Positions 1 to 6,000 of a stretch of DNA of 27,131 bases are shown one piece after another. A program made the position numbers. The stretch covers positions 1-27,131 of the forward strand of contig PLCF01000021.1 of NCBI GenBank assembly GCA_003135555.1, written 5' to 3'. Position 1 is the first letter of the stretch. Every line of letters starts with the position of its first letter. Origin of the DNA: Vulcanimicrobiota bacterium (GTDB lineage Bacteria > Vulcanimicrobiota > Vulcanimicrobiia > Vulcanimicrobiales > Vulcanimicrobiaceae).

Positions 1-3000
1 ACGGCGAAGGGCGTTCGTATGATCCGAGGCGTGGGCCTGCGTTCGGCGGTCGCGATCAACGTCGCGACGATGGTCGGAGCCGGCCCCTTCATCACGCTGC
101 CGCTGATCGTCGGGGCGCTGCACGGTGTGTCTGCGGTCGCTTGGGTCGTGGGAGCGCTGATCGCGCTTTGCGACGGCCTCGTGTGGGCGGAGTTGTCGTC
201 GCGCTATCCGCGCAGCGGCGGGACGTATACCTATCTGCGCGAGGCGTTCGGACCGCGCGGCCCCGGGCGCCTGGTCGGGTTCCTCTTTATTTGGCAGTTT
301 CTCTTCTGGGCTCCGCTCATTCTCGCGTCGGGCTACATCGGCTTCGCACAGTATGCGGCCTATCTCGCTCCGGCGATCGCGGCGCCGCTTCCCACCCATC
401 TGCTGGCGGCGGCAGTTGGGGTCGTCACGCTGATCGCGCTGTACCGTCCTATCCCGCAGATCGCACGCACCGCTCTTCTGCTGGGCGCCATCGCGCTCGC
501 GACGCTCGTCGTGGTCGCGGTCGCCGGCCTGTCGCACCCCTACGCGCCCCTGGCGCATACGATCCCGATGACCTTCACCTTTGCGGTTCCGATCGTCGCG
601 CTGGGCGCGGCGCTGGTCTACACGATTTACGACTACGGCGGGTACGGCGACGTCTGCGCGCTTGGCGATGAGGTTCTCGCTCCGGCACGCACGATGCCGC
701 GTGCCGTCGTGCTCTCGGTCCTCTTCGTCGGCGTCGCGTACGTGCTGCTCAACCTGGGCGTCGCGGCGGCGATCCCGGCGAAGGAGATCGCCGCGTCGAC
801 CGCAATCGCATCGCTGGTCGCCCAACGCGCGTTCGGTGCACCGTTCGCCGTTGTCGTCACGATCGCGGTCATGATCACCGCCTTCGCGTCGACGTACGGG
901 CTCTTGCTGGGCGGTTCGCGCATCCCGTATGCCGCCGCGCGCGACGGTGAGTTCCTGGCCCGGTTCGCGCGACTTCATCCGAGCGGCAAGTTTCCGGCGT
1001 TTTCGCTCCTCACCATCGGGATTCTGGCCCTGCCCGCGTCGCTGCTGCCGCTCGACTTCGTGATCAACGCGCTGACGGCGGGGATCGTGCTCATTCAGGG
1101 CATGGGCCAGATCGTAGCGCTCGCGCTCGCGCGGCGCGGGCGCGCCGAATCGCCGTTCCGCGTCCCGCTCTATCCGCTGCCGCCGCTGATCGCCCTGGCC
1201 GGCTGGATCTTCTTGTTCTGGTCGACCGGGGCGCTCGCAATTGCTTTTGGCCTCGTCACGCTCGCGGTGGGAGCTGCGGTCTACCTCATCCGTGCGCGTG
1301 CCGTGCGCGGCTGGCCGTTCGCCGCTGCGGCCATCGCGTCGATCTTCACGGTGATCTGCGCGGCACTCCCCGCAGCGGCGGGCCCGCAGCCGCCGGCTGG
1401 ACCGAGCTTCGGTCATGCAGTCGTCGTGCAACGTGACGGCGAGCCGCGGCTGCTGGTGGACGGGAAGCCCTTCTTCTTCTGGGGCGGCGCGTTCTTCTAC
1501 GAGCGCATCCCGGCCGCGGGGTGGCGCAGCTCTATGCTGGCGATGCGCGAGCTCGGGGCGAACACGCTCGATCTCTACGTGCCGTGGAATTGGCACGAGC
1601 TCGCCGACGGGCGGTTCGACTTCGACGGGCACACCGATCCGCGCCGGAACCTGCGCGAGGTGCTGCGACTCGGTGCAAGCCTGGGCTTTCACTTTCTGGT
1701 GCGCCCGGGTCCGGTGATCCGCAACGAGTGGCGTAACGGCGGCTACCCCGCGTGGCTGCTCACCCGGCCGGAGTACGAGATGCCGCTGCACGACGTGCTC
1801 GAAGGGCGCTACCCGGCGACGGCGACGCTGCAGAACGCGCACAGCGACGACGCGGCCGCCGAGTGGATGCGCAACGCGACGCACCTGCGCTACGCTGCAC
1901 GCTGGCTGCACCGTGCACTGGCGGAGTTCCGGCCGTACGCCGACCGCGTCCTGGCGGTGCAGCTCGACGACGATCAGGCCGCCTACATCGACAATCAAAC
2001 GTATCCCGCGCCGCACATGCAACGCTATCTGCGCTGGCTCGACGCGCAGGTTCGCGACGTGATCGGCCCGGCAACCCCGACGTTCATCAACACCTTCGAG
2101 ATGCGCGTGCCGGCGGCGTCGCCGGTGTGGACGATGGGGAACTGGTATCAGAGCGACGCCTACACGATCGGGACGCACGATCGAGTCGAACTCGACCTCA
2201 CGACGCTGCTGCTGGCGACCAACCGGCGCGGACCGCTGGCGCAGAGCGAGTTCCAGGCCGGTTGGTTGGCCGGGGCCGAAGACCCGCAGCCCCGCTCGGC
2301 GGATCCGCGCAACACGACCGTCGCGTTGGATGAGCTGCTCGCGCTGGGCGCGCAGGGCATCGTGGATTTTCCCATGCAGGATACGCGCGCCGAGCCGGGT
2401 TGGGAGGCCCCATTTTCCAACGCCAGCTATGGCTGGGACGCGGCACTCCGCGCCGACGCCCTCGGGCGGCCGTCTCTGTTCTGGTCGAAACCCGATTCGC
2501 GCTTCTGGCCCACCCACGCGTTTGGGCGACTGATCGCCCGCCTCGCGCCGGTGCTGCTGGCGGCGCATCGCATCGCGCCGGTCGGCATCGCGTACGGCGA
2601 ACCCGCCCCGCGCGCAGATTCGCGGCCGCCGGACGGCGCGGCGGTCGTCGTCGCGCGCGCCCGCGCCGCGCTGACGGCGTGCATCGAACGCGGGCTGACT
2701 TGCGATCTCGTCGACGTGCGCCGGCCACCGCCGCATCTCGAGCGGTACACGACGCTGGTGATCCCACCGGAGACCGCCGCTGCAGCCCCGGCCGCCGTGC
2801 GCGCGCTGCACGCGCGGCTCGCGGCTGCGCATACCCTCTTCACTGCGGCGGTGCCGCAACGACGTGGACCGGGGACGACGATGCTGGCCGGTCCGGCCGG
2901 ACGGATCGAGTTCGGTGCGAATTGGACCGACCAGCCGTCGCCGGTGCGTTTTGTGAGCGGCGCGGCGAGCGTGCCGGCGCATGAGGTCGTCGTGCGCATC

Positions 3001-6000
3001 GACGACGTCGCGCTGAGCGCGCTGGGCGCCCGCGACGACAGCCGGCGCATATCGTCCGATTGCGGTTTTGAAGCGTTGGCGACGGCTTCCGCACAACCGT
3101 ACCAAACGGTGCTCACCTCCGAATCCGGCTGCCGCGTCACGCTACGCGGCGGCGGACGGCCGCGGACGCTCCGGCTCGCGCCGCGCGAGCGGTTGACGGT
3201 GCCGGGCCTGCGCCGCCTCGCGGCGGTCGACGACTTCTCGGAATCGAGCAGCAGCGAGGACTTTGCTTTTGCGATGGGCACCCGGGCCGGCGATTCGGTG
3301 GTGACGCGACAGCACGACGACGACTTCGGCGGCGACGCGATCGTCCTGGCGAACGACCGGATCTGGCTGGAACTCGACCCCCAGGCTGGTGCGCGCGCGT
3401 TCCGGCTGGTAGCCTTCGGTCCGGTGCTCAACTCCAGCGCGGGAACGTTCTTCGCACCCAACGCCTTTGACGCCACCGGTGCGTTCCGCGACGACGTGAG
3501 CCTCCCGGTGCCGCCGTCGGCGCGCGACTACATCGCGAAGTACACGCACGACTATCCCGCCGGCACCTTCAATCGGAGCTACCGCGCCGACGTGCTCGAA
3601 TCCGGGCCGCAGGCCACCGTCCGATTCTCGTACGCGATGCCCGATGCTGCACCGGCGGGGCTGACGTTCGAGCGAATCGTCTCGCTGGCGCCGCACTCTT
3701 GGCGCGTCGTCGTCGACGAGCGACTGACCGCGCCGCCGCGAGCGTCGCTCGGCGCTCAGCGCGCGATCGTGCGCTCCTCGCTGCCCGCGCTCGCGCTCAT
3801 CGGTCCCGGCCCGGTCGGGCTCGACCCGTTCCCACCGCCCCTCGGCGCGGCTGCGCCGGCGACGAACGGTTTGGCCACGTTCCGGGGCAAGGCGGTCTTC
3901 GCGGTCAGTTGGCGCGCGGGCGACGTGGAGCGCGCGAGCTGGACCGCGTACCGCAGTACGGGGACGTTGGCCCTCACCCTGGCGCCCGGCTGGCGCCGCA
4001 CGACGTACGTCTACGCGCCCGCATCGTCCGCCGACGCAGCCCGGCGAATCGCGCAAGCGGAGCGCGCATGGATCGCCGCGAACCCCGCTCCGGAACGTCG
4101 ATAGACGAGGGGAAGTGGCGAAACGGTATACGCAGTCGCCTCAAAAGCGACCGAGTGAGAGCTCATGTGGGTTCGAGTCCCACCTTCCCCAATGAGCGGC
4201 GTCTCTGATTTCGCGCGCGAGTCGTATCGTATCGACCAGCAGATTTGGGATGCGCTGGCGTTACGACCCGGCGAGCGCGCCCTGTTTTTGGGGGTAGCGA
4301 ACGAGGGCGCCTGGATCGCCCGCGCCGCCGAGCTCGGCATCGACGTCACCGTACTCGCCACGAGCGACGCGGCGATCGCACTGAGCGAGAAGCTCGGCGC
4401 CACCGCGATGCGCGGCAGCGCCACGATGATTCCGGCGACCGACAACGCCTACGACGTCGCGGTCGCGATGCACGTGTTGCACGAGATCGATCCGGGCTTT
4501 CACACCCAAGTCGTCGCCGAGCTCGCACGCGTCGGCAAGCGCGTCGCGATCGTCGAACCGTCGCCGCCGGCCGACCCGCTGGGCAAGCGCATCGCGGCGC
4601 TGTACGCGCGCGCCAAGCGCGAGGCGGGACAATTCGAGGCCTATCAGCCGCTCGAGTATTGGCGCAAGCTGCTGGCGCTGGTCAAGGGCGACGTGTGGCA
4701 GAACCTGTTCACCTTCACGCGCATCGCACCCAAGGACGCGGTCTCCGAGACGATCGCGTTGATCCTCGACGCGATGGTGATCGAGGAGATGCCCAGCGCG
4801 TACCTCGACGAGTTGCGCGAGCTGGCGGCGCGGCGCGACGCGCAGTTGCTGCCGCTGTCGCGCATCGTGCTGGTCGGAATCACCTCGGGCGAGCCGCTGC
4901 CGCAGGGAAGCGGCGCCGCATTTCGGCCGAACGTCGCGTTGGGTCCGCCGCCGGCAGCGCCGGCGGAAAAGACGCTTGCGGGCGCGTCCGGCCGTCCGGC
5001 CCCCGCACCGGTGCCCGCGTCGCCGCCCCCGCCGCCGAGCTTCGGGTTCGCGGCCGAGACGCCACCCGTCGGTGCGGGGATGGGGACCCCGGAGCTGCCG
5101 TCCCCGGCGGCGCCACCGGCTCGGCAGGCCTCGCCCTTCGGCGGTCCGTTCGCGCTGCCGGGAGGCGAAGACGAAGCGCCGTTCGGCGGCACCGCCGGCG
5201 AACCGGGCACGGGGTTCGGCTGGACCTGGGAGCCGCCCGAAGACCCGCTAAAAAAGCCGGACTAGCACACTAGCGCCGCGCGGCGCGGCGGAAGGCCGCG
5301 AACTCGCGCCACAGCCGTCCGAACGCGGCGGCCAGCTGCGGCGGAATCGGGCCGCGACAAATGACCGCCGCAGCCGCACGCGCGCGCGCCAACAGCGGCG
5401 CGAGTTGGGCCAGCGCGGAATCGATGCGCCCTACGTCGCGTTCGGCGCGTTCCAACGCCGCGACGACCGGCAGGTCGGCGTACTCTTCGACCCGGGTTGC
5501 GATGCGCCCGATCTCGCGCAGCGCAGACGCGACCTGAAGGCCCGCGAGGGCCAGCACGACGATCAAGGCGACGAGCGTCGCCCAGAGAACGAGTGCCGCC
5601 GGCGACACTAGGCCGCGCTCGACTCGCTCTTCTTGGGTTTCGAATCGCCGCCGCTCGCGGGTGCCGCCGGAGCGGCTGTCGTTCCGGACGCCGCGGGCGT
5701 GGCGGGCGCCGCCGGGGTGGACGACCCGGACTCGCCGGATGTACTCGACTCGCCGGACTTGCTCGACTCAGCGGATTTCGAGGACTCGGTCGACTTCGGC
5801 CGCGAGTCGTTGATGTAGAAGCCCGAACCTTTGAACACGATCCCGGCCGGATTGAAGACCCGGGACATTTCGTCGCTGCCGCAGGCCGGGCACGCGCCTT
5901 CGAAGACCTCGCGGAAGCCATGGCGGACTTCGCTGATCTTCGAGCACGTGCGGCACTGGTAGTCGTAGAGCGGCAAGGGGATCTCCGGAAGGGAAGTTGC

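Follow-up and report, generated by a model that had tools for sequence, protein, structure and literature searches.

Does a single bacterial protein release a sugar from its substrate and import it through its own permease? The question is raised by an open reading frame at the start of the 27,131-nucleotide stretch of DNA analysed here (the window), which the earlier note had read as a cut-and-import device for glucosamine. That one frame joins a permease, a 13th helix, a Pro-rich linker and a GH35 glycosidase was borne out by the ORF list, the translation, Pfam and PDB matches and hydropathy. The start codon is an ATG with GAAGGG 7 nt upstream, and the N-terminal start MIRGVGLRS is common to the protein and its homologues. 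Since the earlier note counted from a 5′-open frame of 1367 aa, its residue numbers are 6 higher than those used here. The gene was also rightly taken to be whole despite its position at the contig start: the 99%-identical database protein P0002 has 1361 aa and occurs on 5 contigs, the longest of 2.37 Mb. An assembly artefact as the source of the fusion is ruled out by 46 of 80 related public loci, which carry permease and GH35 in one frame; 4 further loci do likewise but are cut or frameshifted. We did not recover the earlier figure of 115 fused proteins among the 120 best matches. In a search with residues 440-1361, a region that differs from the one used earlier, both families were present in 79 of the best 120 matches, and GH35 only in 41. 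A further literature search found no paper describing a permease-GH35 fusion architecture, in agreement with the earlier search.

Five parts make up the protein (Table 1). An APC permease of 12 helices is followed by a further helix, the 13th, and by a linker rich in Pro; then come a GH35/GlmA-like barrel, together with second and third domains of GlmA type, and a mutarotase-like C-terminal domain.

Table 1. Features of the fusion gene and its immediate neighbour, in window coordinates
Feature	Position	Strand	Residues and description	Basis
Whole fusion gene	19..4104	+	1361 aa plus stop	ORF list, translation; 99%-identical database protein P0002
APC-superfamily permease	19..1290	+	1-424; 12 TM helices	Pfam PF13520, BasC match, hydropathy, signature conservation
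Basic cytosolic loop RARAVRG	1291..1311	+	425-431; comes after last helix aligned to BasC	Charge map
13th transmembrane helix	1312..1380	+	432-454; predicted in to out	Hydropathy
Pro-rich linker	1381..1428	+	455-470	Read directly from sequence
GH35/GlmA-like (beta/alpha)8 barrel	1429..2553	+	471-845	Pfam PF01301, AF2 model, Foldseek, VIA, conservation
Asp650-Asp651-Asp652	1966..1974	+	Directly after predicted strand beta4; GH35 has Asn-Glu, GlmA Asp178-Glu179	
Glu744 in SEFQAGWLA, candidate nucleophile	2248..2250	+	End of predicted strand beta7; invariant	Model
GlmA/GH42-type alpha/beta domain and beta-sandwich	2554..3210	+	846-1064	VIA on model
Flexible linker, galactose-mutarotase-like beta-supersandwich, terminal helix	3211..4101	+	1065-1361	AF2, VIA-wide, Foldseek
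tRNA-Leu(CAA)	4109..4191	+	5 nt past stop codon; conserved neighbour	ARAGORN on window

Permease and membrane topology

The permease part matches AA_permease_2 (PF13520) at residues 6-400 (E 5.5e-35), and in the PDB search its residues 9-423 matched residues 8-425 of BasC (6f2g, E 2.1e-33). Over its whole length, the LeuT-type core of 12 TM helices can be aligned with BasC and the bacterial LAT/ABT-type permeases (6f2g; TIGR00909, TIGR00911), with the G-x-G motif of TM1 and the aromatic-x-Y-x-G-aromatic motif of TM6 matching those of BasC position for position. However, the scores lie far under every NCBIfam cut-off (142 vs 557 and 112 vs 702), the protein differs from BasC-type permeases in carrying TM13 and the enzyme module as an extension at its C terminus, and its orthogroup has residues of its own. 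These are VGAGP in TM1 (G-x-G-P; G-I/A-G-P throughout the orthogroup), C51-D52-G53 in TM2 and Y204-D205-Y206-x-G208-Y209 in TM6, whereas paralogues in the same genomes carry GSGIF in TM1 and F-A/S-Y-x-G-W in TM6. Both D52 and D205 are invariant in the orthogroup, while the paralogues have G/A and A/S there. Such orthogroup-specific Asp residues would suit a cation, which we take as a hint from the sequence. The nearest solved relatives in the PDB search are amino-acid exchangers (BasC, xCT, LAT1/2), and the earlier suggestion of glucosamine as the permease substrate is not supported. To our knowledge, no APC member carries an amino sugar.

Hydropathy and charge fit 12 helices followed by RARAVRG, a 13th helix (hydropathy peak 2.15 at residues 434-452) and the Pro-rich linker, with Arg/Lys-rich loops on alternate sides, as an N-in orientation predicts. 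Given this count of 12 + 1 helices, which is consistent with the BasC alignment and the overall architecture, the glycosidase module would lie outside the inner membrane, in line with the extracytoplasmic position proposed earlier. According to an excerpt of PMC9758169, a cultured representative of the phylum that is assigned to Baltobacteraceae has a diderm cell envelope, and we therefore infer that the module resides in the periplasm. TM13 and the linker (residues 425-470) are among the least conserved segments, with 46% mean pairwise identity. Stand-alone GH35 homologues retain a single N-terminal helix (signal anchor) or a signal peptide.

Glycosidase module and its putative active site

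Glyco_hydro_35 (PF01301) matches residues 478-588 with E 4.8e-30, a match that spans no more than positions 2-108 of the 319 in the profile, and GlmA of T. kodakarensis (5gsm) matches residues 476-585 (E 5.8e-32, PDB search). The AF2 model of the barrel region (pTM 0.79) finds GlmA as its best Foldseek matches (5gsm, 8oug, 6jow, 5gsl; E 6e-19 to 2e-16), with VIA Z 22-24 for the barrel. VIA aligned 527-537 residues of the model (22-626) onto whole GlmA chains (5gsl, 5gsm; Z 21.9-23.1); the two proteins share the three-domain core of GlmA, in which a barrel is followed by an alpha/beta and a beta domain. The GlmA exo-beta-D-glucosaminidases are thus the nearest solved relatives by sequence as well as by fold; the earlier note had named them as the nearest characterised relatives. 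The differences from GlmA are nevertheless substantial. Significant sequence similarity is limited to about the first 110 barrel residues, the NCBIfam equivalog model, which has a cut-off of 1500, gives a score of 102.7, and an additional mutarotase-like domain is present. GlmA is a cytosolic enzyme, whereas the fusion module would be periplasmic and membrane-tethered.

No Pfam match at E ≤ 10 was found for the C-terminal domain (residues 1065-1361). Its AF2 model (pLDDT 86.3, pTM 0.88) aligned with 3mwx over 207 residues in VIA-wide (Z 18.6, rmsd 2.4) and also matched accessory domains of GH38 and GH57 (Z 16-18). The last ~500 residues, previously left unassigned, can thus be assigned on the basis of models to putative GlmA-type domains and a galactose-mutarotase-like domain.

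The barrel is the most conserved segment of the protein, with 73% mean pairwise identity compared to 66% for the permease segment. Asp650-Asp651-Asp652 is invariant in 36 of 36 (alignment A1) and 46 of 46 (alignment A2) sequences. Its position after strand beta4 was taken from the AF2 model, and the alignment of this region to ‘TIDDE’ of 5gsl is weak and not significant; the equivalence of D651 and D652 to GlmA residues is therefore based on strand position and this alignment, not on superposition. On this basis, the position of the GH35/GlmA acid/base Glu (Glu179 in GlmA) is occupied by Asp (D652) in every family member examined. We know of no clan GH-A enzyme with Asp as acid/base. The candidate nucleophile Glu744 lies in SEFQAGWLA, which presumably corresponds to the GH35 nucleophile motif; in sequence, it occupies the classical place of the nucleophile in GH35 and not that of Glu347 in GlmA. 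In a set of 34 more distant representatives, this Glu is kept by all 9 that have DDD, and 18 of the 25 that lack DDD have lost it. Because the barrel is the most conserved part and DDD and Glu are co-retained, a functional active site seems likely.

By alignment and the GlmA literature, D651 is at the position of GlmA Asp178, which reads the C2-NH3+ group of glucosamine according to an account of the active-site residues excerpted from PMC6566704. The −1 subsite residues Y53, E103 and D178 of GlmA, as given in parts of PMC8861115 and PMC6566704, have invariant counterparts in Y520, E570 and D651; the counterpart of Y379 is tentatively Y804, by motif inspection only. The second-best fold group (E about 5e-17 in Foldseek; Z 20.6-23 over 468-477 residues in VIA) is IaSGT, the GH35 beta-1,2-glucosyltransferase of Ignavibacterium album (7vkw and related). 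As described in part of PMC8861115, this GH35 branch holds non-galactosidase, even transferase, chemistry, and IaSGT is a dimer without signal peptide, inferred to be cytosolic, whereas the fusion module would be tethered in the periplasm. IaSGT carries Asn175-Glu176 where the fusion protein has Asp-Asp.

Distribution and fission of the two halves

The GH35 module was detected in 194 of 206 sampled genomes of one Eremiobacterota family, with one match in most of them, and in 0 of 94 genomes from the rest of the phylum. The 12 family genomes in which no match was found include some that are 94-98% complete. The permease orthogroup occurs in 184 of the 206. At 51 of 55 related loci tRNA-Leu(CAA) stands at the end of the ORF, and the conserved neighbours are housekeeping genes (cystathionine enzymes, esterase, tRNA-Leu, M20 peptidase, ftsZAQ), with M20-ftsZ-ftsA-ftsQ a few kb from the fusion gene. 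No polysaccharide-utilisation genes, regulators or endo-enzymes were found near the locus. Within this family it is thus a core gene, almost universal and kept in synteny.

The fusion itself is less constant. The permease orthogroup is fused at 52 of 97 places and lies in frames shorter than 1000 aa at the other 45, while 27 of 80 GH35 loci are ‘alone’; 95 of 96 genomes have one permease copy, fused or not. About half of the family genomes carry the fusion. In the rest, an in-frame deletion has removed the permease part, and a permease belonging to the same orthogroup stands alone at another site. The GH35 tree implies at least 9 losses of the permease part. Within one genus, all 5 genomes with an ‘alone’ GH35 module possess a stand-alone orthogroup permease, and in two fused genomes (G053, G201) the fused copy is the only permease match at E ≤ 1e-20; the permease function was therefore retained rather than discarded. 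Fused and stand-alone permeases show the same signature in TM1, TM2 and TM6, even those from genomes where no GH35 module was found. Each half can also be present on its own: in genus g22 the GH35 module occurs in 5/5 genomes and the permease in 0/5, genus g27 has the permease in 4/4 and the module in 1/4, and families f3 and f20 have the permease in 4/22 and 3/16 genomes with no GH35 module found there.

Proposed function and alternative readings

Fusion at 52 of 97 places, the near-universal presence of both parts in one family and the single permease copy point to a functional link in the Rosetta-stone sense. Our preferred reading, held tentatively and with some doubt, is a single-chain inner-membrane machine in which an active periplasmic exo-beta-glycosidase module hands a product to the attached permease. 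The N terminus of the 12-helix permease would be cytoplasmic; after the Arg-rich loop, helix 13 would cross outward, and the Pro-rich linker would tether the four-domain module in the periplasm. Most likely, the module is catalytically active as a retaining exo-beta-glycosidase and represents an uncharacterised GH35-like subfamily, ‘DDDQ’. Its substrates might be small glycosides that got through the outer membrane, with a −1 sugar that is probably cationic, of the 2-amino-sugar type, and a product, probably cationic as well, would enter the cell through the permease. The position of D651, the invariant D52 and D205 and the peat habitat of the source organism are the reasons for this hint of a cationic substrate. 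The tether would provide 1:1 co-expression and proximity. Because the parts are separate genes in about half of the genomes and each can occur alone, such coupling would be an optimisation, not a necessity.

Cut-and-import of glucosamine, as originally proposed, thus stands in part. The GlmA matches, D651 and the TM2/TM6 Asp residues agree with it, but D652 in place of the acid/base Glu, the lack of detectable chitin, chitosan or NagB-type genes, the housekeeping context and the separable halves do not. In the organism's own genome (84% complete) no GH46, GH18 or NagB was found; a PF01182 match was rejected as NagB and is Pgl. These points, together with the amino-acid-exchanger relatives of the permease, also count against our preferred reading, as do the permease signature kept in genomes without the module (3 of 4 in g27, and f3 and f20), the module without permease in g22 and the repeated permease losses.

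It is unlikely, though not far-fetched, that the two parts have independent functions, the permease serving an amino acid or amine of its own and the module being an autonomous periplasmic enzyme to which the fusion adds no more than an anchor in the membrane, a signal for export and joint expression. The frequent splitting, the occurrence of each part alone and the unchanged permease signature agree with this, and after permease deletion the module retains one helix only, as anchor. On the other hand, the fusion is kept over many genera with both parts strongly constrained, both are near-universal in the same family, and the permease persists as a stand-alone gene in the five ‘alone’ genomes mentioned above.

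We regard it as rather improbable that the module trims an endogenous glycan (de-N-acetylated peptidoglycan, LPS/lipid A precursors or periplasmic glucans) and the permease recycles the product, with no scavenging of environmental polymers. Near-universality with mostly one match per genome, the fixed chromosomal position beside tRNA-Leu and near the fts genes, and the failure to find utilisation genes nearby or GH18 and GH46 in the genome would fit such a housekeeping role in the envelope, but synteny may reflect vertical inheritance alone, any link to cell-wall enzymes would be hypothetical, and the gene was not found in 12 family genomes.

That the module is a non-hydrolysing, GH35-like ectodomain which would stabilise or gate the permease or sense a ligand for it (lectin-like), by analogy with rBAT/4F2hc, is very improbable: the absent acid/base Glu, the lack of both DDD and Glu in 18 of 34 distant relatives, the SLC3-plus-SLC7-like topology and the statement in an excerpt of PMC8537225 that rBAT and 4F2hc were never shown active, although rBAT keeps the catalytic triad, are consistent with it, but the module outlives the permease losses with its motifs intact and therefore has a role of its own, no segment is more conserved than its barrel, DDD and Glu are kept together, and stand-alone orthogroup permeases exist without any ectodomain.

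The layout does resemble the two-part amino-acid transporters of animals (SLC7 with SLC3 rBAT/4F2hc). Both combine a LAT-like 12-helix permease (matches to xCT, LAT1/2, y+LAT and b0,+AT, E 1e-17 to 1e-26), one additional helix running N-in to C-out, and a bulky ectodomain in which beta-sandwich domains come after a (beta/alpha)8 barrel of a glycosidase family; in the related bacteria, the halves are often separate genes. The animal transporters are disulfide-linked pairs, whereas the fusion protein is a single polypeptide with an ectodomain that appears catalytically constrained and persists without the permease. As this ectodomain belongs to GH35/clan GH-A and that of SLC3 to GH13, the likeness reflects convergence, not homology.

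The fusion protein and its membrane topology

The fusion gene is a single frame of 1361 codons that begins with ATG, and GAAGGG lies 7 nt 5′ of this start codon. Two Pfam families match the encoded chain above their cut-offs: AA_permease_2 (PF13520) at residues 6-400 (E 5.5e-35, 121.5 bits against a cut-off of 27) and Glyco_hydro_35 (PF01301) at residues 478-588 (E 4.8e-30, 105.7 bits against 27), the latter spanning just the first 108 of 319 profile positions. The earlier note, whose residue numbers are higher by 6 since they were counted from the first codon of the contig, was thus right in placing permease and GH35 on one chain. 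It had also cautioned that the gene touches the contig start, and the frame is open to that end. Homologues start at the identical MIRGVGLRS, and the database protein P0002, which is 1361 aa long and 99% identical, was found on five contigs, the longest of 2.37 Mb, so the gene is whole. A chimeric assembly as the source of the fusion is ruled out by P0002 on the 2.37-Mb contig and by 46 fused loci in other genomes. Among the listed contig pieces, short ones from two other studies bridge positions 1300-1494 (loop, TM13, linker and GH35 start) and lend slight support to the continuity of the junction; positions 1220-1300 are uncovered by any listed piece, yet depth bins there are above zero in the sets X2 and X3. 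Contigs from several peat-metagenome studies contain near-identical sequence. The genome to which the window belongs carries a single copy of the gene. In databases, family members are labelled 'amino acid transporter', 'amino acid permease' or 'hypothetical protein'.

Hydropathy analysis revealed 12 hydrophobic segments before residue 425, co-linear with the permease BasC. The loops rich in Arg or Lys (60-82, 143-147, 297-324, 372-381 and 425-431) are those predicted to be cytosolic in a permease of N-in orientation. In APC permeases, both the N- and the C-terminus are cytoplasmic. Taken together with the loop charges, this means that the 13th helix is predicted to place all downstream parts outside, as had been proposed. 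Enzyme-only homologues retain at their N-terminus either a single helix or a classical signal peptide, which agrees with an outside location. Since the sole cultured member of the phylum, filed in Baltobacteraceae, is described in PMC9758169 as having an inner membrane, thin peptidoglycan and an LPS outer membrane, 'outside' most likely corresponds to the periplasm. A complex prediction for permease (1-460) and GH35 part (466-1000), run without controls, gave ipSAE values of 0.00 and 0.00 and speaks neither for nor against docking.

The permease belongs to the APC superfamily, as its profile match exceeds the threshold across the 12-TM core. Its best solved match is BasC (6f2g; E 2.1e-33, residues 9-423), followed by human SLC7 chains. 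VGAGP in TM1 pairs with IGAGI of BasC, and Y-D-Y-G-G-Y in TM6 with F-A-Y-D-G-W. The TM1 G-x-G and TM6 aromatic-x-Y-x-G-aromatic motifs are thus present, and they are kept in fused and stand-alone members; we take these unwound TM1 and TM6 motifs to be the substrate site. No named APC subfamily was reached: all 14 APC-type models among the 16 NCBIfam models listed (ABT, LAT, FrlA, AdiC and others) scored below cut-off, for example TIGR00909 (ABT) with 142.4 against 556.8 bits and TIGR00911 (LAT) with 112.3 against 701.8. Fused and stand-alone members share the signature G-(I/A)-G-P-(L/F)-(I/V)-T in TM1, C-D-G...A-E-L in TM2 and Y-D-Y-x-G-Y in TM6, and both have D52 and D205 as additional invariant Asp residues. 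In APC paralogues encoded by the same genomes, the corresponding motifs are GSGIF and F-(A/S)-Y-x-G-W, which are of the BasC kind (GAGIF, FAYDGW). Because of these differences, the orthogroup forms a divergent branch. D52 and D205 lie in or near the predicted substrate path and would suit a cationic substrate or ion coupling, the identity of the substrate not being given by them.

Coordinates of features in the window and in the fusion protein
Feature	Position	Strand	Remark
Fusion gene	window 19..4104	+	ORF list, translation
Basic loop RARAVRG	residues 425-431		charge/hydropathy map
13th hydrophobic helix	residues 432-454		hydropathy
Linker PAAAGPQPPAGPS	directly after 13th helix		read from sequence
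tRNA-Leu(CAA)	window 4109-4191	+	starts 5 nt past fusion-gene stop
Downstream methyltransferase, longest ORF	window 4165-5265	+	PF08241, E 2e-6; start inside tRNA-Leu gene
hisG	window 14125-14766	-
Class-II His-tRNA-synthetase-like gene	window 14795-16135	-	PF13393; directly 5′ of hisG
Succinate dehydrogenase/fumarate reductase genes and two-CCG-domain protein	window 21598-25191	+

Fold and predicted active site of the enzyme module

Residues 440-1361 were modelled with AlphaFold2 from alignment A1 of 36 family sequences, with a mean pLDDT of 77.5 and a pTM of 0.79. Foldseek ranked four archaeal GlmA exo-β-D-glucosaminidases first (5gsm, 8oug, 6jow and 5gsl; E 6e-19 to 2e-16), followed by the β-1,2-glucosyltransferase of Ignavibacterium album. 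In VIA comparisons the model matched GH35 and GH42 barrels with Z 20-24; Z values of 22-24 together with the Pfam match identify the barrel as GH35 (clan GH-A). The longest VIA alignments were to GlmA chains, with 515-537 residues of model positions 22-626 aligned to whole chains (Z 20.3-23.1), among them 537 residues to 5gsm 1-786 (Z 21.9) and 527 to 5gsl (Z 23.1). Because whole chains align, residues from about 467 to 1064 are predicted to have the three-domain build of GlmA, consisting of barrel, α/β domain and β domain. At the sequence level, the match to Thermococcus kodakarensis GlmA (5gsm) is confined to residues 476-585 (E 5.8e-32). The GlmA equivalog model NF041127 was not reached (102.7 against 1500 bits, profile positions 9-115 of 782), and a profile of A1 searched against the PDB gave no significant alignment longer than about 105 residues.

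The C-terminal part, folded alone from 57 sequences (pLDDT 86.3, pTM 0.88), adopts a galactose-mutarotase-like β-supersandwich. Its best VIA-wide match is 3mwx (Z 18.6, rmsd 2.4, 207 residues), and accessory domains of GH38 mannosidases and a GH57 glucanotransferase come next (Z 16-18; Foldseek, VIA-wide). The VIA-wide comparison gave 126 chains at Z >= 8, most of them either mutarotases or domains accessory to glycosidases or lyases. Identity to these fold matches is 6-13%, and the domain has a conserved motif of its own, DATGALRDD...YTHxYPAGTFNR. Pfam gave no match to C-terminal parts at E <= 10. In the ESM Atlas, residues 1065-1361 fell closest to unnamed clusters (0.91), while DUF5695, AmyA-gluTrfs_C and Fucose_iso_C at 0.85-0.86 serve as leads only. 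The last ~500 residues, previously listed as unassigned, can now be divided by models and fold matches between GlmA-type domains and this supersandwich.

In T. kodakarensis GlmA, Glu179 is the acid/base and Glu347 the nucleophile according to PMC6566704 and PMC8861115. Asp178, just before the acid/base, is reported to bind the C2-NH3+ group of glucosamine, and the D178N mutant is inactive (PMC6566704); galactosidases and the glucosyltransferase carry Asn at this position (PMC6566704, PMC8861115). In the window protein, the predicted strand β4 (VLAVQL) is followed by Asp650-Asp651-Asp652-Gln, and the predicted strand β7 (739-745) ends in Ser-Glu744-Phe of SEFQAGWLA, so that Glu744 is a candidate nucleophile by predicted strand end. 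Asp650-652 and Glu744 are invariant in 36/36 sequences of A1 and in 46/46 of a second family alignment, A2. Y520 and E570, which align with Tyr53 and Glu103 of GlmA, are also invariant. The Asn-Glu motif that provides the GH35 acid/base after β4 is replaced by the Asp triad, with D652 at the place of GlmA Glu179. D651 would correspond to the amino-group-reading Asp178, the position being matched by strand end and a non-significant alignment. The equivalence of D651 and D652 is based on predicted strand ends and a HMMER stretch ('...VQLDDD' against '...VTIDDE' of 5gsl); as evidence by itself this pairing was dropped, since the stretch scores -3.7 bits. Judged by strand ends and this non-significant stretch, the putative amino-group-reading Asp is kept and the acid/base Glu is changed to Asp across the whole family.

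Mean pairwise identity among the 46 fused proteins is highest in the barrel (73%), followed by the permease (66%), TM13 and linker (46%), the C-terminal domain (43%) and the α/β and β domains (36%). In a MAFFT alignment of 34 more remote representatives (long, GH35-first, with an identity of about 34-40%), whose rows are phylogenetically non-independent, all nine with the triad also keep the Glu, seven have the Glu only and 18 lack both. The barrel being the most conserved segment, and triad and Glu being retained together, argue for a functional site. On this evidence, the 'DDDQ' signature marks an uncharacterised GH35-like subfamily that is wider than Eremiobacterota. The database proteins P0186-P0255 are a large set of GH35-first proteins of about 1100-1300 aa with 34-45% identity, 18 of 34 examined being without the triad and the nucleophile-position Glu. 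Such members are likely to be non-catalytic descendants of the same subfamily.

Distribution, fusion and fission

With one genome scanned per species, 310 relatives of the enzyme part were obtained, and nearly all of the 80 loci kept are from Eremiobacterota (Vulcanimicrobiota, WPS-2). Among 301 sampled genomes of this phylum, 194 of the 206 from the family of the window had the enzyme part, and 0 of the 94 from 20 other Eremiobacterota families. The permease orthogroup (E <= 1e-60) was found in 184/206 genomes of this family, in 4/22 and 3/16 of families f3 and f20, and in the single genome of f21. These tallies take in the unpublished genomes G246, G231, G276, G248, G264, G178, G213, G238 and G233; the tally of permease copies and frame lengths also takes in G305 and G309, and no further claim rests on unpublished genomes. 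The gene is thus a near-universal core gene of one family in a phylum that is abundant in peat and poor soils and has very few cultures, and its function bears on feeding or envelope upkeep of these bacteria.

The locus lies in a fixed block. Its 5′ side consists of a cystathionine β-synthase-like gene, a Cys/Met PLP enzyme and an esterase (PF00756, minus strand); on the 3′ side follow tRNA-Leu(CAA), a methyltransferase, two unknown genes, and an M20 peptidase, ftsZ, ftsA and ftsQ, all on the minus strand. The tRNA gene is located -120 to +200 nt from the ORF end in 51 of 55 loci. In many other genomes (related loci L001-L080) the enzyme ORF reads into the tRNA gene, and database proteins therefore bear a near-identical false tail (GEVAKRYTQSPQKRPS.SSCGFESHLP), which is the translated tRNA gene. 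Methyltransferase homologues are located 3′ of the tRNA in 34 related loci; the true start of the methyltransferase in the window is probably at 4245 or later.

Of the 80 loci, 46 encode permease and enzyme in one frame; in another four this frame is truncated at a contig end or broken by a frameshift. Three loci have adjoining separate frames, and 27 have only the enzyme, their 5′ flank of up to 7 kb being free of a permease. A barrel tree with 79 rows requires at least 9-10 state changes, and the window protein is nested among 'alone' forms. Many 'alone' proteins start with MIxSVGLRSA and continue with one helix, and stand-alone permeases start with (L/M)(V/I)RGVGLRGA. As the N-terminus of these enzymes is the permease-orthogroup motif, they arose by in-frame deletion of helices 1-12, and a stand-alone GH35 as the ancestral form with later permease insertion was rejected.

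Genomes with an 'alone' enzyme still have the permease elsewhere. Exactly one copy (E <= 1e-60) was found in 95 of 96 matched genomes; of the 97 places, 52 belong to fused genes, taken as frames of 1000 aa or more, and 45 to frames below this length. In a permease tree of 36 fused, 39 stand-alone and 4 outgroup sequences, from which 4 loci of unpublished genomes were excluded, 24 stand-alone sequences form one clade with support 100. This clade includes the permeases of five same-genus genomes with an 'alone' enzyme (G121, G117, G219, G232 and G265), and the permease of the window clusters with the fused permeases of G053 and G201. Genus g22 has the enzyme in 5/5 and the permease in 0/5 genomes, genus g27 the permease in 4/4 and the enzyme in 1/4. 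In-frame loss of the permease part has recurred in genomes that have a stand-alone orthologue at another site, which makes the family a clean natural experiment in gene fission.

The two halves of the window gene have different nearest relatives. Its permease shares 83% identity with that of the fused G053 gene, but the enzyme parts of these two genes share just 54%. For its enzyme part, the 'alone' gene of G121 is the closer relative (68%), and the stand-alone permease of G121 is 55% identical to the window permease. This hints at recombination between locus types within the genus. In G219, two near-identical 'alone' loci with the same flanks and neighbours (L005 and L006, contigs C4 and C9 of one MAG; branches 0.0025 and 0.003) are either a recent duplication or a contig duplicated in the bin. 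At locus L044, the permease part is split over three overlapping frames 5′ of the enzyme, owing either to decay of a fusion gene by frameshifts or to sequencing errors.

Predicted function, alternatives and neighbouring genes

The architecture and evolutionary behaviour of the fusion are solid, and its chemistry is predicted from sequence and models. The fusion is a natural 'Rosetta stone' that ties an uncharacterised Asp-Asp-Asp GH35-like subfamily to an uncharacterised APC orthogroup and gives a testable hypothesis for both. A functional partnership is favoured by this pattern, by the co-distribution of both parts in one family and by the strong constraint on each of them. In its most economical version, the periplasmic exo-glycosidase would release a product which the tethered permease imports; we adopt this reading tentatively, as close to an even case. 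That the parts have independent functions, the fusion being an anchor and co-expression device, would fit their separability, each part also being found alone; beside the partnership favoured by the patterns named, we regard it as somewhat unlikely.

If the enzyme feeds the transporter, its substrate might be cationic and of the 2-amino-sugar type, as suggested by the GlmA-like Asp651, the acidic triad, the extra membrane Asp residues and the acidity of the peat habitat, which should keep glucosamine fully protonated. In its full form, this reading would have the periplasmic 'DDDQ' exo-glycosidase clip a protonated amino sugar, e.g. glucosamine, from small oligomers and hand it to the attached APC permease, the cation being bound by D52/D205. 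If so, this would be the first APC transporter to carry an amino sugar and, among natural proteins, the first fusion of a glycosidase with a permease. The earlier note had proposed such cut-and-import of glucosamine from chitosan-type oligomers. The hints at a cationic amino sugar speak for this proposal; the missing acid/base Glu, the kinship of the permease to amino-acid exchangers, the housekeeping context, the separable parts and the failure to find any chitin, chitosan or NagB-type gene in the 84%-complete genome speak against it and leave it a minority reading that we consider doubtful. Family searches, which did not extend to SIS-type deaminases, GH75, GH8 or CE4, found neither GH46 nor GH18 in this genome. 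The single PF01182 match was ruled out as NagB, being the 6-phosphogluconolactonase of a zwf-opcA-pgl cluster. Adjoining this zwf-opcA-pgl-gnd-tal/pgi cluster, an MFS transporter (L082, contig C31, 3463-4734, plus strand) has the Tet(A)/(B)/(C) efflux family as its best NCBIfam match, below cut-off (307.7 against 475 bits). Envelope-glycan housekeeping would suit the neighbours, which are housekeeping genes including ftsZ, ftsA and ftsQ, with no carbohydrate-utilisation gene near the fusion gene in the synteny block; compared with product uptake by the permease, it appears improbable.

The layout resembles that of the SLC7/SLC3 heteromeric amino-acid transporters of animals: a LAT-like permease is combined with a single N-in/C-out helix and with a glycosidase-family ectodomain that has a TIM barrel and β-sandwich domains. 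SLC7 chains match the window permease at E 1e-17 to 1e-26, and the likeness to the heteromeric transporter is one of layout only. In contrast to SLC7/SLC3, the window protein is a single chain, and its ectodomain is GH35/GH42-like (clan GH-A) and not of the GH13 α-amylase family, so the likeness is a convergence. A 2021 review (PMC8537225) reports no enzymatic activity for SLC3 and leaves the meaning of its glycosidase homology open. An SLC3-like pseudo-enzyme ectodomain in the window protein, suggested by the replacement of the acid/base Glu by Asp, is very unlikely given the conservation of the barrel and the joint retention of triad and Glu. A bacterial counterpart with an ectodomain apparently under catalytic constraint offers an experimental handle on SLC3 glycosidase ancestry and, if the enzyme does feed the permease, a working model for the descent of SLC3 heavy chains from glycosidases. 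In the literature outside subscription journals and supplements, we found no account of a permease-GH35 fusion or of GH35 in Eremiobacterota, in line with the novelty claimed before.

Two further gene groups were observed in the window. The class-II His-tRNA-synthetase-like gene next to hisG, with hisD further on, looks like the regulatory subunit HisZ, which together with a short-form HisG presumably makes up this pair, rather than a housekeeping HisRS. After the flavoprotein and iron-sulfur subunits of a succinate dehydrogenase/fumarate reductase, the expected membrane cytochrome b is not recognisable, and its place is taken by a protein that has two cysteine-rich CCG domains. This arrangement suggests an anchor that we take to be non-classical and type E-like.
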